A DNA stretch of 64,000 bases from an uncultured Pseudomonadales bacterium (GTDB taxonomy: Bacteria; Patescibacteriota; Microgenomatia; UBA1400; Chazhemtobacteraceae), in NCBI GenBank assembly GCA_964422035.1, contig CAYQZQ010000001.1, positions 121,013 to 185,012 of the forward strand. The letters are read 5' to 3'. The notes beneath the pieces were generated by a model that made no database searches, was not told the DNA's origin, and saw only the letters and a list, made by a program, of their open reading frames with translations. Of this stretch, positions 56,599 to 64,000 are shown piece after piece. The stretch's first letter is position 1, and each line of letters begins with the position of its first letter. The position numbers and the translations under genes were made by a program.

Positions 56599-57066
56599 AT
56601 GGCAAATCAACTAAATTGGAGAAATAAAGTTAAGTTTTCTAGCGGAGATACTATTAAAGTACACCAAAAGGTGGAAGAAGGTGATAAAAGCAGAAACCAG
56701 ATATTTGAAGGTGTTGTTATTAGGATTAAGGGTAATCCTGGCTCTAAAAGCTTCACAGTTAGAAAAATGGGTGCTAACAAAGTAGGTGTTGAGAAAATTT
56801 TTCCAGAAGACTCCCCTGGTGTAACGAAAGTAGAGATAGTTAAACAAGGAAGAGTATGTCGTGCTAACCTTTCTTATTTAAGAGACAAAGTAACCAAAAA
56901 GGATTCTAAGATTGAGGATAGATTTGTAAAAGCTAATAAAGAAGAAAAGTCTGAAGAAGCAGAGGATGTAGTTGAGAAGACTAAAGAAAAAACTGAGCCT
57001 AAAAAAGACAAAAAAGATGAGAAAACTAAGGAAAAAGGTGAAAAAAAAGAAGAAGACAAAAAGTAA
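56599..57066 (+). CDS. rplS: 50S ribosomal protein L19 with Lys/Glu-rich C-terminal extension
   Basis: FSSGDTIKVHQKVEEGDKSRNQIFEGVVI L19 core. About 45 aa K/E-rich tail. Confidence 0.9.
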   Translation: MANQLNWRNKVKFSSGDTIKVHQKVEEGDKSRNQIFEGVVIRIKGNPGSKSFTVRKMGANKVGVEKIFPEDSPGVTKVEIVKQGRVCRANLSYLRDKVTKKDSKIEDRFVKANKEEKSEEAEDVVEKTKEKTEPKKDKKDEKTKEKGEKKEEDKK

Positions 57067-57112
57067 TAAGGGAGTTTCAAACTAGCAGTAATGGTAAAAT
57101 AGCTGTTAATTA

Positions 57113-57187
57113 GGGTCCGTAGCTCAGCCTGGTTAGAGCACCTGCCTTTTAAGCAGGGTGTCCTGGGTTCGAATCCCAGCGGACCCA
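57113..57187 (+). tRNA. tRNA-Lys (anticodon TTT)
   Basis: GGGTCCG/CGGACCC acceptor stem, anticodon loop CTTTTAA. Confidence 0.9.
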
Positions 57188-57193
57188 CATCTA

Positions 57194-57268
57194 GGCCCCA
57201 TCGTCTAGTCTGGTCTAGGACGCCAGGTTTTCATCCTGGTAACCCGGGTTCGAATCCCGGTGGGGTCA
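57194..57268 (+). tRNA. tRNA-Glu (anticodon TTC)
   Basis: GGCCCCA/TGGGGTC acceptor stem with one G-U pair. Anticodon loop TTTTCAT. Overall similarity to bacterial tRNA-Glu. Confidence 0.85.
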
Positions 57269-57504
57269 CATTTATAGGCTTATTTGCTTGTTACTAAATT
57301 CACTTTTTGGGTTCCTTTTATACATTTTTGTTGTTGATCTAGGTTTATTAATTGGTGGGTTGAGTTGTTATGTATATAAAGAATAAGGACTATAGGATAG
57401 TATATTCTGTTTAATTGTTTTTTGCTAAAAGAGATTGTTATGCTATCTGAATATATTAAGGCGCTCTTTATGGTTAGTCGGGGTTAAACTGTTATGATTA
57501 GATT

Positions 57505-59588: not shown

Positions 59589-61058
59589 GTGATGAAAAAG
59601 ATTGTAGTAAGCTTAATTGCATTGTTTTTGAGTTTGAGTTTTTCCAAGCCGGCAGTGGCTGTAGTTGATCCCCTGGCGTCTGATAATAACAAGGTTGGAG
59701 TTCACATTCTGCATACAGACGAGTTGGAGCAAGCGGCAAAATTGGTCAACGGTAAAAACGGTAAATGGGGGTACGTTACTGTGCCGATTGAGACTACTGA
59801 CAGAAATAGAGAAAAGTGGAATAAGTTTATGGATAAAGCTGACAAGAAAAAGGTTATTCCTATTATTCGTATTGCTACCTTGGTGAAAGAGGTCCACTGG
59901 GAAGAACCTGAAAGTTTGGACTTGATTGCTTTTGCAAATTTTTTAAATGACTTAAACTGGCCCACAAAAAACAGGTATGTGATTGTGTTTAATGAGGTCA
60001 ACAGAAATGATGAATTTGGAGGCATGGTTAACCCCGGCAGATATGCTGATATTCTGGTAAATACCTCTAGGATATTTAAAAATCGAAATGAGGAATTTTT
60101 TATCCTGCCAGCAGGACTTGACCTAGCATCAGTCAATAGGAATGGGGCTATGGAGTGGAGGAATTTTTGGAAACAAGCGTATAACCACAATCCTAAAGTG
60201 TTTGAGGTGATTGATGGATGGACCAGTCATTCTTATCCAAACCCTGGATTTATAGGAAGTCCGAGAGACAAGGGGGTAATGTCGATTTCTGGCTTTAAGT
60301 ATGAGCTTGATTTTGTTTCAAATTATACAGATAAAAAAATGCCGGTTTTTATTACAGAAACAGGATGGGATCAAGATAGAATTGAGGAAGAAAAAGTAGC
60401 TTCTTACTTTGATTATGCATTTGACAATGTGTGGTCTGATGTTAGGGTGGCTGCAGTTACACCTTTTCTTTTGTCTGCAGGAGATGGCCCTTTTGAAAAG
60501 TTTTCTTTACTAGACAAATCTGCTCAACCTACTGAACCGTATAAAGTAATTAATAATAAGACAAGCAAAGGATCTCCTAAATTAGCCGATGACAATGATG
60601 AAGTATTGGGGGTTAGCACCAGGGATCTTCTAGACAACTCTGAGTCGGATTTGTGGGGTTCGGTCAAAAACTGGTGGTTTTTATTTGTCAGTTGGCTGTC
60701 TGGATCCAAGGACTCTGAGATAAAACACATTAAAGTTGACAATAAAGTGTATAAGGTTAAAGTAGCTGACGAACCTATTGAGCAAGGGAAAGGACTATCA
60801 GGAACTGATAAGATTGCCGATGATGAAGGAATGTGGTTTGTATTTGAAGAGGCGGGCATGCGTTCATTTTGGATGAAGGGAATGAAGTTTGATATTGATA
60901 TTGTCTGGATAAGTAAGGGAGAGGTTATCGGTGTGGACAGAGCCAGTTACGATAGACCTTATAGAACACTTGTTTCCCCTAGTAAAGTTGATAGAGTACT
61001 TGAAGTGAAACAGAACTCGGGCATAATGGTAGGAGACAAGGTAGAAGTTTTAAATTGA
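59589..61058 (+). CDS. secreted fusion protein: clan GH-A-like glycoside hydrolase domain plus C-terminal DUF192 domain
   Basis: Signal peptide MMKKIVVSLIALFLSLSFSKPAVA. FNEVN (acid/base-like NEx) and FITETGW (nucleophile-like TExG) motifs. C-terminal GLSGTD...GMWFVF...FWMKGMKFDIDIVWI is typical of DUF192/COG1430. Confidence 0.55.
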   Translation: MMKKIVVSLIALFLSLSFSKPAVAVVDPLASDNNKVGVHILHTDELEQAAKLVNGKNGKWGYVTVPIETTDRNREKWNKFMDKADKKKVIPIIRIATLVKEVHWEEPESLDLIAFANFLNDLNWPTKNRYVIVFNEVNRNDEFGGMVNPGRYADILVNTSRIFKNRNEEFFILPAGLDLASVNRNGAMEWRNFWKQAYNHNPKVFEVIDGWTSHSYPNPGFIGSPRDKGVMSISGFKYELDFVSNYTDKKMPVFITETGWDQDRIEEEKVASYFDYAFDNVWSDVRVAAVTPFLLSAGDGPFEKFSLLDKSAQPTEPYKVINNKTSKGSPKLADDNDEVLGVSTRDLLDNSESDLWGSVKNWWFLFVSWLSGSKDSEIKHIKVDNKVYKVKVADEPIEQGKGLSGTDKIADDEGMWFVFEEAGMRSFWMKGMKFDIDIVWISKGEVIGVDRASYDRPYRTLVSPSKVDRVLEVKQNSGIMVGDKVEVLN

Positions 61059-62129: not shown

Positions 62130-63209
62130 ATGATCGGTAAAAAAATTCTTGATAAAGAAGGCAGTTATAAAATTGATAAAAGCGGTGTATATGAGTCTGT
62201 TTTGGCTTTGCCAGACCAGATTTTAAGTATTTGGAATCAGGCAGACGATCTAAAAGTAAGCGACGAGCTTAAAAAAATAGATAAGATAATTGTGGCAGGA
62301 ATGGGAGGATCAGCACTTGGAGCACGAGTGATTAAGTCCTTGGCTGGTAGAGATCTTAAAGTTCCTTTGGAGATTGTTAATAGCTATCATTTGCCTGGTT
62401 ATGCGGACGATAATACTTTAGTAATTTTGTCCAGTTATTCGGGAAATACTGAAGAAGTTTTAGCTGCCGCAAAAGAAAGTATAACAATGGGGTGCAAAAA
62501 CTTTGTAATTACAACAGGAGGCGAATTACTTAAAATGGCCAATAAACATGATTGGCCTATTATTAAGATCGAGCCGGCGAAAAACCCAAGCAATCAGCCC
62601 AGAATGGCAATCGGGTATAGTGTTATGGCTCAGATGTCACTATTTAACAAAATTGGAGTATGGAGCTTAAAATCCGAGAAGATCGAGAAGGTTATAGACT
62701 GGCTTAGTCATCAGCAAAAAAACTGGGTTAGAGAAATTGATCAGAGCAAAAATTCTGCCAAAAGATTAAGTTTTCAACTTAAAAATAAGGCTGCTGTTTT
62801 AATTGCTGGTGATTTTTTGCAAGGAGCTGTACATGTTTTAAAGAACCAATTAAACGAAAACGCCAAAACATTTGCCGTTCGATTTGATATTCCTGAGCTC
62901 AATCATCACTTAATGGAAGGATTAGGTAAACCTGAAGAGCTTGATAAAAAATTGCATTTTTTACTGTTTGACTCAAAATTGTATGATGACAAGATCAGAA
63001 AGAGAATCAAGGTAACGGAGGAGGTAATTTTAAAACAAGGATATGAAGTTACCAGATTGGTGGTGGAAGGAAAAAGTAAGTTTGATCAGGTTTGGGAGGT
63101 CATTCAGTTTGGAGAATTTATCAGTCTTTATTTGGCTGTGTTGCATAAGATAAATCCTGCCCCTATTCCCTGGGTTGATTACTTTAAGAAACAAATTAAG
63201 AGCGGATAA
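62130..63209 (+). CDS. bifunctional phosphoglucose/phosphomannose isomerase (SIS family)
   Basis: Two SIS-like halves. VAGMGGSALGARV and ILSSYSGNTEE motifs. Confidence 0.8.
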   Translation: MIGKKILDKEGSYKIDKSGVYESVLALPDQILSIWNQADDLKVSDELKKIDKIIVAGMGGSALGARVIKSLAGRDLKVPLEIVNSYHLPGYADDNTLVILSSYSGNTEEVLAAAKESITMGCKNFVITTGGELLKMANKHDWPIIKIEPAKNPSNQPRMAIGYSVMAQMSLFNKIGVWSLKSEKIEKVIDWLSHQQKNWVREIDQSKNSAKRLSFQLKNKAAVLIAGDFLQGAVHVLKNQLNENAKTFAVRFDIPELNHHLMEGLGKPEELDKKLHFLLFDSKLYDDKIRKRIKVTEEVILKQGYEVTRLVVEGKSKFDQVWEVIQFGEFISLYLAVLHKINPAPIPWVDYFKKQIKSG

Positions 63210-64000
63210 TCTTTAAAACCTGATCTTTTTTTTCTTCCATTGTTTTTTTGTCTACTGCTTCTAGATTAAGTCTGATTTTTGGTTCAGTATTGGAAGCTCT
63301 TACGTTAAACCAGAAGTCGTCATATTCTATGGTTATTCCATCAAGTTTTGATATGTTGTTGGCGTCTGAAAAATCTTGTTCAAGTTGTTTTATTTTGGCT
63401 TGAGGGTCTTTTACTTTTGAATTAATTTCACCTGAGTGATGATATTTTTGCAAAGGCTTTATTATTTCGGACAGGGGCTTGTTTTCTTCTGATACGAAAT
63501 GCAAAAACTTTGTTAGTAGGATTGTGGGCGCTTCAAATGTCCCATATTTAGTTTTGTAAAAGTAGTGACCTGACGACTCACCTCCAAAAGGAGCGTCTTC
63601 CTTAATCATTTGCTCTTTGATCAGAGAGTGACCTACTCTTGTGACTGAAGGCTTGCCTCCCGCATTTTTTATCATGTCTAAGGTAATCTTTCCGGGTCTT
63701 ATGTCGTAACAGATAGTTGAGTTAGGCTTTTTTTCAAGGATAATTTGAGCCATTATACCTCTTAGAATTTCTTGTCTGACTACCTTGCCCTTTTCATCAA
63801 TTATAAAATATCTATCCCCATCACCATCCGGCGCTAAGCCTAGATCTGCTTTGTGCTCAACTACTGCATCTTTTATGGTCTTTAGATTCTCCTCTTCAAG
63901 TGGATCGGCGGGATGAGAGGGAAAGCTACCATCAAGCTTGAAGTTTATTTTTATTAATTCAATTTGAGGAAGCTTTTCAAAAAGAGCTTCTATGTCAAGT
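63196..64000 (-). CDS. phosphomannomutase/phosphoglucomutase; 5' portion lies outside the window
   Basis: GGESSGHYFY phosphosugar-binding loop and RASNTEPKIRL. The upstream frame stays open to the window edge and contains GLAPDGDGDR metal-binding loop. Confidence 0.8.
   Translation of the reverse strand, partial: LDIEALFEKLPQIELIKINFKLDGSFPSHPADPLEEENLKTIKDAVVEHKADLGLAPDGDGDRYFIIDEKGKVVRQEILRGIMAQIILEKKPNSTICYDIRPGKITLDMIKNAGGKPSVTRVGHSLIKEQMIKEDAPFGGESSGHYFYKTKYGTFEAPTILLTKFLHFVSEENKPLSEIIKPLQKYHHSGEINSKVKDPQAKIKQLEQDFSDANNISKLDGITIEYDDFWFNVRASNTEPKIRLNLEAVDKKTMEEKKDQVLKIIRS

Follow-up and report, generated by a model that had tools for sequence, protein, structure and literature searches.

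We analysed a stretch of 64,000 nucleotides (the window; positions 121,013 to 185,012 of contig CAYQZQ010000001.1, assembly GCA_964422035.1) from a bacterium of the Microgenomates order UBA1400, and found that one of its genes encodes a glycoside hydrolase (GH) joined to a DUF192 domain. The protein runs from a Sec-type signal peptide through a (beta/alpha)8 domain of clan GH-A, a disordered linker and an aromatic-rich helix to DUF192, five parts in all. The explanation that we favour, with a probability of roughly 0.55, is that it is an exported retaining beta-glycosidase of clan GH-A which remodels an envelope polysaccharide and carries DUF192 as an optional accessory module. This reading is grounded in the domain identities, the conservation of the catalytic residues, the features of the export signal, the optional modularity of the protein and its synteny, and from these we infer the enzymatic activity, the substrate, the cleavage of the signal peptide and the role of DUF192. 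An earlier description made from the letters alone (the sequence-only reading) had called the gene product a secreted fusion of a GH-A-like hydrolase and DUF192; as a description this held throughout, and the function attached to it was only partly supported.

The open reading frame (ORF) at 59589..61058 (+) was present as that reading had claimed, with a GTG start and 489 aa. A deposited identical protein (P0001, 488 aa, encoded on a contig of 725,544 bp) starts at the ATG at 59592, one codon after the GTG. Residues are numbered here by the 488-aa form, so that the numbers of the earlier reading are higher by one. The coordinates of all features are collected in Table 1.

A predicted clan GH-A barrel with invariant catalytic residues

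The full-length AlphaFold model had a mean pLDDT (predicted local distance difference test) of 88.8, with most of the barrel above 90, and its N-terminal domain folded into eight alternating beta/alpha units. When the model was compared with the PDB by Foldseek, 133 matches were obtained at E<=0.001, and among the top 50 all were GH-A-type TIM barrels except 3pjy and 3m7a, which are DUF192 structures. The neighbours of the GH domain were PslG/GH39 (E down to 2.6e-11), GH30, GH51, GH10, GH5_18 (root-mean-square deviation, rmsd, about 5 Å over 359 columns) and GH128 (6uaw, template modelling (TM) score 0.67 normalised to the target).

The sequence-only reading had taken FNEVN and FITETGW as the acid/base and nucleophile motifs of clan GH-A, about 125 residues apart. 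Both motifs proved to lie where a GH-A enzyme has them, the NE pair just after strand beta-4 and the glutamate of FITETGW at the end of beta-7, although the two catalytic glutamates are 121 residues apart. We then followed these residues through 92 homologs with 38-81% identity to the query. N134, E135, T255, E256, G258 and W259 were invariant, as were R93 and H213, and because these key residues do not vary over such a range of identity, neither motif is a chance match. Taken together, the strand 4 and strand 7 positions, the conservation and the structural neighbours identify the N-terminal domain, as modelled, as a clan GH-A barrel, and it would be expected to work by a retaining double-displacement mechanism.

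Within clan GH-A, the domain is probably a divergent relative of the Asl1-like/GH128 group. PF11790 (Glyco_hydro_cc), which corresponds to GH128 in CAZy, was matched by 27 of the 92 family members at E<=0.01, and nine of ten homologs tested singly passed its curated cutoff of 21 bits, with scores of 25-33 bits over profile positions 62-229 of 237. In agreement with this placement, UniRef names one fused homolog 'Asl1-like glycosyl hydrolase catalytic domain-containing protein'. PF01229 (GH39) was found neither among the matches of the window protein at E<=1 nor among those of the 92 members at E<=0.01, and the likeness to GH39 is one of fold only.

The closest comparison at the level of residues was with the GH128 enzyme CBM6E, whose -1 subsite contains N167, E168, H245, Y247 and E272. 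The window protein has N134, E135, H213, Y215 and E256 in the same order, a correspondence drawn from order and spacing rather than from a residue-level structural alignment. The spacing from the acid/base glutamate to the histidine is nearly identical (78 residues in the window protein and 77 in CBM6E), whereas that from the tyrosine to the nucleophile is 41 as against 25. Both GH128 enzymes considered (CBM6E and PvGH128_II, PDB 6uaw) share the (beta/alpha)8 barrel with the window protein, in which it is longer, at about 300 aa compared with about 240-265 aa in GH128. The layout is also similar, since CBM6E consists of a signal peptide, a GH128 domain and a CBM6 domain, and the window protein of a signal peptide, a catalytic domain and a C-terminal beta-rich module. 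The accessory module here, however, is DUF192 and not a known carbohydrate-binding module (CBM), the family is limited to Microgenomates, a part of the Candidate Phyla Radiation (CPR), and for PF11790 the window protein falls below detection, with its homologs only just above the cutoff.

Export signal and topology

The N-terminus is the only segment of the protein above the hydropathy threshold of a transmembrane helix, and it has the features of a Sec-type presequence, which hold across the family. The presequences had a median length of 23 aa, with K or R in the n-region in 82 of 88 and a hydrophobic core in 85 of 88. All 88 obeyed the -1/-3 rule: position -1 was always small (Ala in 83) and position -3 either small or aliphatic. 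A23 is nearly invariant among the homologs. Judged from these sequence features, the presequence fits a signal peptidase I (SPase I) site after A23. The signal peptide of the sequence-only reading was borne out, and its cleavage is probable.

The alternative that the hydrophobic segment is an uncleaved signal anchor, making the protein a membrane-tethered ectoenzyme like PslG, seems to us rather doubtful. JGI calls some homologs 'membrane protein', AlphaFold predicts a helix at residues 2-16, the top structural match, PslG, is a synthase-associated hydrolase of the kind that the window protein would then resemble, and in the triple fusions described below the same segment would have to serve as a transmembrane helix. 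Against it, the nearly invariant Ala at -1 and the small or aliphatic residue at -3 in 88 of 88 presequences argue for selection on an SPase I site. Cleavage after A23 is the reading that we prefer, and beyond the signal peptide the protein contains no membrane anchor and no LPXTG-type signal.

The barrel and DUF192 are separated by a linker, which in many homologs is rich in Pro and Thr (TPTPTPTP, for instance), and by the aromatic-rich helix. Fused proteins keep this helix, and unfused ones end with it. The homologous segments are amphipathic, with K, E, Q and N interspersed, and their median hydrophobic moment across the family was 0.57 (z = 1.9 against shuffled sequences); the signal is weak for the copy in the window. 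We considered residues 351-369 as a transmembrane helix that would split the GH and DUF192 domains across the membrane, and rejected this, as no 19-aa window exceeded a Kyte-Doolittle value of 1.0. With no transmembrane helix between them, both domains are therefore placed outside.

The DUF192 domain

The C-terminal domain was identified without difficulty. PF02643 matched residues 389-486 (in the 489-aa form) with E=1.4e-20 and 73.6 bits against a cutoff of 27, over profile positions 2-95 of 96, and the family profile found 3pjy (1.8e-15) and 3m7a (1.8e-13) in the PDB. A model of the domain alone (60702-61055) reached a pLDDT of 95.4 and superimposed on 3pjy and 3m7a with query-normalised TM scores (TMq) of 0.91 and 0.87 and rmsd of 1.6 and 2.0 Å, respectively (TM scores ranged from 0.84 to 0.91). 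Profile and fold thus both bore out the DUF192 assignment of the sequence-only reading. The window protein keeps the signature residues G401-L402, G413-M414-x-F416, F426-W427-M428-K429, D436, L470-E471 and G481-D482. This signature (GL, GMxF, (F/M)WMK, (L/I)D, LE, GD) was 85-100% conserved in 74 fused homologs, and 3pjy and 3m7a have identical residues at the aligned positions.

DUF192 is widespread in bacteria and archaea and counts among the oldest uncharacterised families, although two structural-genomics structures have been available since 2010. Our literature search for a published function of DUF192, COG1430, UPF0127 or PF02643 found no functional study, and many of the matches to 'DUF192' really concern DUF1929. 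Published data do place several stand-alone members outside the cytoplasm. Saro_0823, the protein of 3m7a, is periplasmic with a cleaved AXA signal, and HVO_0504 is a Sec-exported N-glycoprotein (both from published proteomics), and BCAL2738 turned up when surface-exposed proteins were screened for. Stand-alone DUF192 proteins (Saro_0823/3m7a, R01717/3pjy, HVO_0504) have the same fold and signature as the window domain and are likewise extracytoplasmic. They differ in being single-domain proteins of 130-180 aa with a signal peptide or anchor of their own, whereas the domain in the window has no anchor and would be exported as the C-terminal module of a glycosidase.

In the PDB, DUF192 structures were the sole meaningful fold matches of the DUF192 model. 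Beside them, it gave a weak, above-noise match (E about 1e-3, TMq 0.6-0.67) to a portion of 6yxx_EH, 6yxy_EH and 7aoi_XH; this chain, about 400-440 aa long, belongs to assembly intermediates of the mitoribosomal large subunit of Trypanosoma brucei. A hypothetical protein of Synechocystis was another of the next-ranked fold matches.

Distribution and optional modularity

We collected the GH family from 1.84 billion representatives and obtained 444 clusters at 50% identity (E<=1e-3). A relative is encoded in at least 588 Microgenomates species-level genomes, and the record titles of the carriers include Collierbacteria, Levybacteria, Woesebacteria and Gottesmanbacteria. Nearly all of 80 loci examined had the order GH, often a PF18894 gene, holA and PMM/PGI, and in a Collierbacteria-like subset ruvCAB stood upstream of the GH gene. 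The GH family is a single-copy, syntenic, near-core gene of Microgenomates. We also noted that many contigs with this Microgenomates-type block are titled 'uncultured Pseudomonadales' or 'uncultured Gammaproteobacteria' (L006, L008-L011, L017-L019 and others), and these look like mislabelled records of metagenome-assembled genomes.

DUF192 was fused to the GH domain in 13 of the 80 species loci. Two related genomes contained split pairs (L032:3456-5060 and L086:1267-2853), in which a GH gene of 378-380 aa is followed 10-15 nt on by a DUF192 gene of 144-150 aa. The GH genes of these pairs end in the conserved helix, and their DUF192 partners carry an N-terminal hydrophobic anchor of their own. 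The idea that unfused orthologs in general keep a separate DUF192 gene nearby was rejected, as the two split pairs were the only such cases within 6 kb.

Among 107 family representatives with a complete GH domain, 40 had the GH domain only, 50 had it followed by another C-terminal tail of about 240 aa, nine had GH and DUF192, and eight had an N-terminal extension before the GH domain. The tails were mutually homologous in 44 of the 50, and four of five that were scanned gave weak, below-cutoff matches to Ig-like families (CARDB or N_BRCA1_IG). Proteins with this tail (P0252, P0264, P0274 and P0283, for example) are about 545-590 aa long and represent the commonest architecture at 50% clustering. 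Since the C-terminal slot holds the tail or DUF192, or stays empty, DUF192 fills an interchangeable accessory slot.

Two relatives extend the fusion by a membrane enzyme, each as a continuous ORF in the syntenic position. P0261 (L094:1087-3153) has the architecture Bac_transf+GH+DUF192, in which Bac_transf is an initiating phosphoglycosyl transferase, and lies beside an ABC-2 permease gene, and P0257 (L095:5001-7271) is Acyl_transf_3+GH+DUF192 and lies beside a gene with a faint EpsG match. A third protein, P0247, has LGT+GH, and each of the three came from one contig. In L089 and L090 a stand-alone DUF192 gene starts 4 nt after a Glycos_transf_4 gene. In a neighbour-joining tree of the N-terminal domain, which carried no support values and was sampled with a bias to fused forms, the unfused forms were nested among the fused ones. 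The GH-DUF192 architecture is visible in UniProt and common in Microgenomates, and we found no paper that describes it.

Proposed envelope remodelling and its alternatives

On the reading that we favour, the protein would be exported by the Sec system and then probably cleaved after A23. E135 as acid/base and E256 as nucleophile would act in a double displacement, helped by N134, H213, Y215 and R93, most likely on a glycan of the cell surface or the extracellular space. The enzyme would most likely trim or remodel envelope polysaccharide, in the manner of PslG and other synthase-associated hydrolases, and would not serve bulk nutrient salvage. The flexible linker and the short aromatic helix would join DUF192 to the barrel, and DUF192 would most likely bind the polymer or the envelope, or position the enzyme on it.

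That two relatives join the GH domain to a phosphoglycosyl transferase or an AT3 acyltransferase suggests a part in the assembly or remodelling of envelope polysaccharide. The DUF192 gene behind a Glycos_transf_4 gene in L089 and L090 also speaks for a link to such polymers. In AT3-SGNH fusions of the OafA/OatA type, a membrane acyltransferase is joined to an extracytoplasmic carbohydrate-modifying domain. P0257 resembles them, with an Acyl_transf_3 domain followed by an extracytoplasmic carbohydrate-active module, here GH and DUF192 instead of SGNH. PslG of Pseudomonas aeruginosa (GH39; 5bx9, 4zn2) offers a second parallel. It was the best overall Foldseek match (E=2.6e-11) and, like the window protein, has a GH-A barrel outside the cytoplasm with a beta domain on its C-terminal side. 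PslG is membrane-anchored. PslG works with the machinery that makes the cell's own surface polysaccharide, and the two proteins are plausibly analogous in function, but there was no sequence-level GH39 match and no psl-like operon at the window locus. Global superposition on PslG was poor (rmsd about 24 Å), since the two proteins differ in their second domain and in where it lies.

The main rival to a role in envelope remodelling is nutrient scavenging, in which the enzyme would be a glycanase acting on environmental or host polysaccharide such as beta-1,3-glucan, with products passed to glycolysis through PGI/PMI and PMM. We consider this unlikely. The nearest Pfam family, PF11790, is that of the GH128 beta-1,3-glucanases, the signal peptide is predicted to be cleavable with no membrane anchor or LPXTG-type signal elsewhere, Microgenomates have been reported to be relatively rich in glycoside hydrolases, and PMM and PGI/PMI are nearby in most of the 80 loci. 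However, a single-copy, near-universal gene that stays syntenic in a housekeeping block in at least 588 species is atypical of niche-specific polysaccharide utilisation, no sugar transporters are adjacent, and the partners found in the triple fusions, an initiating phosphoglycosyl transferase and an AT3 acyltransferase, indicate biosynthesis or remodelling. The proximity of PMM and PGI/PMI, as suppliers of sugar phosphates, was given little weight, because the block also contains holA. For the same reason the 'glycan salvage' context suggested by the sequence-only reading is weak, since the gene order includes holA and forms a conserved housekeeping block. That reading had the gene preceding PGI/PMI and PMM, and the order is correct, but a PF18894 gene and holA intervene and the PMM fragment lies on the minus strand.

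Several observations weigh against envelope remodelling with DUF192 as the accessory module. The N-terminal domain of the window protein itself had no Pfam or NCBIfam match at E<=1, and neither phmmer nor a HMMER profile search found a GH match for it in the PDB at E<=10, so that its family placement rests on its homologs and on the predicted structure. The structural neighbours of the domain cover many specificities. The conserved ruvCAB/holA neighbourhood is one of housekeeping genes and may have no functional meaning. Most GH orthologs in the 80 loci have no DUF192 fused and none within 6 kb, the Bac_transf and Acyl_transf_3 fusions were each found on one contig, and stand-alone DUF192 genes other than those named above stand mostly in unrelated contexts. 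For the related UBA1400 genome Ch65, only five GHs were listed, none with a signal peptide and one of them a 'GH39 family hydrolase' (PMC7143001). For DUF192 itself, a fold search of the PDB with the model gave no significant match to a CBM fold. The best CBM or CUB matches (E 0.075-0.35, TM about 0.3, rmsd 8-12 Å) were noise, and an assignment of DUF192 to a known CBM fold is unsupported. Finally, K429, D436, E471 and D482 are strongly conserved across the whole DUF192 family; to judge from the alignment, such conserved polar residues suggest a specific site for catalysis or a ligand more than they do a typical CBM.

As a separate point on Ch65, if its 'GH39 family hydrolase' is an ortholog of the window protein, the conclusion that there are 'no secreted glycoside hydrolases' may need revisiting (PMC7143001). 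Genome papers can miss this GH family because it has no solved structure and its Pfam assignment is borderline.

The last of these observations bear on the possibility that the protein is a bifunctional enzyme, in which DUF192 would have a catalytic or processing task of its own, for instance that of an esterase, lyase or transferase on the same glycopolymer. With W427 included, the conserved residues hardly vary, if at all, even among very distant DUF192 proteins and are aligned in 3pjy and 3m7a, the domain exists in an autonomous and widespread stand-alone form, and it is unlike known CBMs in fold. It shows no likeness to a known enzyme fold either, however. With about 110 aa it is a small domain, most GH orthologs do without it, and it sits in a slot that otherwise holds the ~240-aa module, some copies of which have weak matches to non-catalytic Ig/CARDB-type domains. 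We therefore regard a second catalysis as a live but improbable rival, and rank a binding or positioning module above it with modest confidence. The suggestion in the sequence-only reading that DUF192 is a carbohydrate-binding or -processing accessory is partly supported. The domain is fused or adjacent to the GH and shares its C-terminal slot with the ~240-aa module, which speaks for it; its absence from most orthologs, the mostly unrelated contexts of stand-alone copies and the lack of a significant match to a CBM fold speak against it.

It is also conceivable that the fusion has no functional meaning and that in one lineage the loss of a stop codon simply joined the GH gene to an adjacent DUF192 gene. 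Split pairs occur with the genes 10-15 nt apart, DUF192 is missing from most orthologs, and its stand-alone genes occur in varied contexts. Nevertheless, over 70 clusters (90% identity) contain the fused form at only 38-52% identity to the query, and none of the DUF192 signature residues has been lost, a sign that purifying selection has long acted on the joined protein. Having given up its own anchor, the domain relies on the signal peptide of the GH for export. In addition, the triple fusions also retain DUF192. A merger without consequence is thus the least probable of the explanations considered, and very unlikely.

An accessory module of an envelope-remodelling enzyme remains the explanation that we favour, and the fusion may in turn inform on DUF192 at large. 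The two domains are fused in many Microgenomates, adjacent genes in Gottesmanbacteria-like genomes, and extended by membrane enzymes in two relatives. Read as a 'Rosetta stone', this pattern would mean that DUF192 is a carbohydrate-active module not recognised so far, which works on envelope polysaccharides throughout bacteria and archaea as a new family of CBMs or through a new glycan-modifying activity. In so general a form we hold the proposal only tentatively and think it somewhat unlikely to be right. The link of DUF192 to an exported glycosidase and to surface-polysaccharide enzymes nevertheless yields a concrete and cheaply testable hypothesis, that DUF192 binds or processes envelope glycans. 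Such a lead to the function of DUF192 is the main value of the fusion, which is otherwise a modular carbohydrate-active enzyme whose clan is known and whose accessory module is unusual. The question is relevant to how CPR bacteria build and remodel their envelopes and interact with their hosts.

The gene and its locus

Upstream of the gene, ruvC, ruvA and ruvB form a tight array on the same strand, and the stop codon of ruvB lies 15 nt before the ATG. A gene with a PF18894 metallopeptidase-like domain follows 12 nt downstream, its stop overlapping the start of holA (61448), and PGI/PMI comes after holA (Table 1). Although PF18894 is named 'putative phage metallopeptidase', about half of the 80 Microgenomates loci have a homolog in this place, which makes it a conserved chromosomal gene, and a prophage remnant was rejected on the same ground. 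Promoter-like and terminator-like sites were not enriched over shuffled sequence, and a search of the window for a second GH or DUF192 copy found none.

Table 1. Features of the GH-DUF192 protein and neighbouring genes, in window coordinates
Feature	Position	Strand	Basis
Sec-type signal peptide, residues 1-23 (MKKIVVSLIALFLSLSFSKPAVA, followed by VV at the predicted junction); predicted SPase I cleavage after A23	59592..59660	+	hydropathy, family features
Clan GH-A (beta/alpha)8 catalytic domain (predicted), residues about 28-330; divergent Asl1-like / PF11790 (GH128-related)	59673..60581	+	AlphaFold, Foldseek, PF11790 matches of homologs
R93, invariant Arg within strand beta-3 (residues 89-95)	59868..59870	+	92/92; AlphaFold strand
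FNEVN, residues 133-137	59988..60002	+	
N134-E135 in FNEVN, predicted acid/base pair just after beta-4 (128-132)	59991..59996	+	92/92
H213-S-Y215, H-x-Y motif after beta-6 (210-212)	60228..60236	+	H 92/92; Y 89/92, F in the other 3
FITETGW, residues 253-259; E256 predicted nucleophile, end of beta-7 (252-255)	60348..60368	+	conservation, model
Disordered acidic linker, residues 331-350	60582..60641	+	pLDDT below 50
Aromatic-rich helix, residues 351-369 (ESDLWGSVKNWWFLFVSWL)	60642..60698	+	low-confidence predicted helix; position conserved in homologs
DUF192 (PF02643, COG1430/UPF0127), residues 372-488	60705..61055	+	Pfam, PDB profile, model, conservation
PF18894 'putative phage metallopeptidase' gene, 127 aa	61071..61454	+	HELMH motif, E=5e-23
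PGI/PMI gene	62130..63209		
PMM fragment	63196..63753	-	

Further upstream, genes for tRNA-Lys(ttt) and tRNA-Glu(ttc) were found at 57113-57269 (+), between rplS (L19) and ruvC, and a minus-strand 'ORF' at 56874-57188 is an artefact that overlaps a tRNA.

The genome has a GC content of 38.4%. Strand asymmetry is extreme over the whole window (1-64000): the plus strand contains 24.2% G and 14.2% C, an overall GC skew of +0.26; the skew was positive in all 2-kb bins but one, and the cumulative skew climbs almost continuously. The same disparity of G and C on one strand has been reported for the order UBA1400 (Collier-, Beckwith- and Chazhemtobacteria), where it was interpreted as a sign of largely unidirectional replication.

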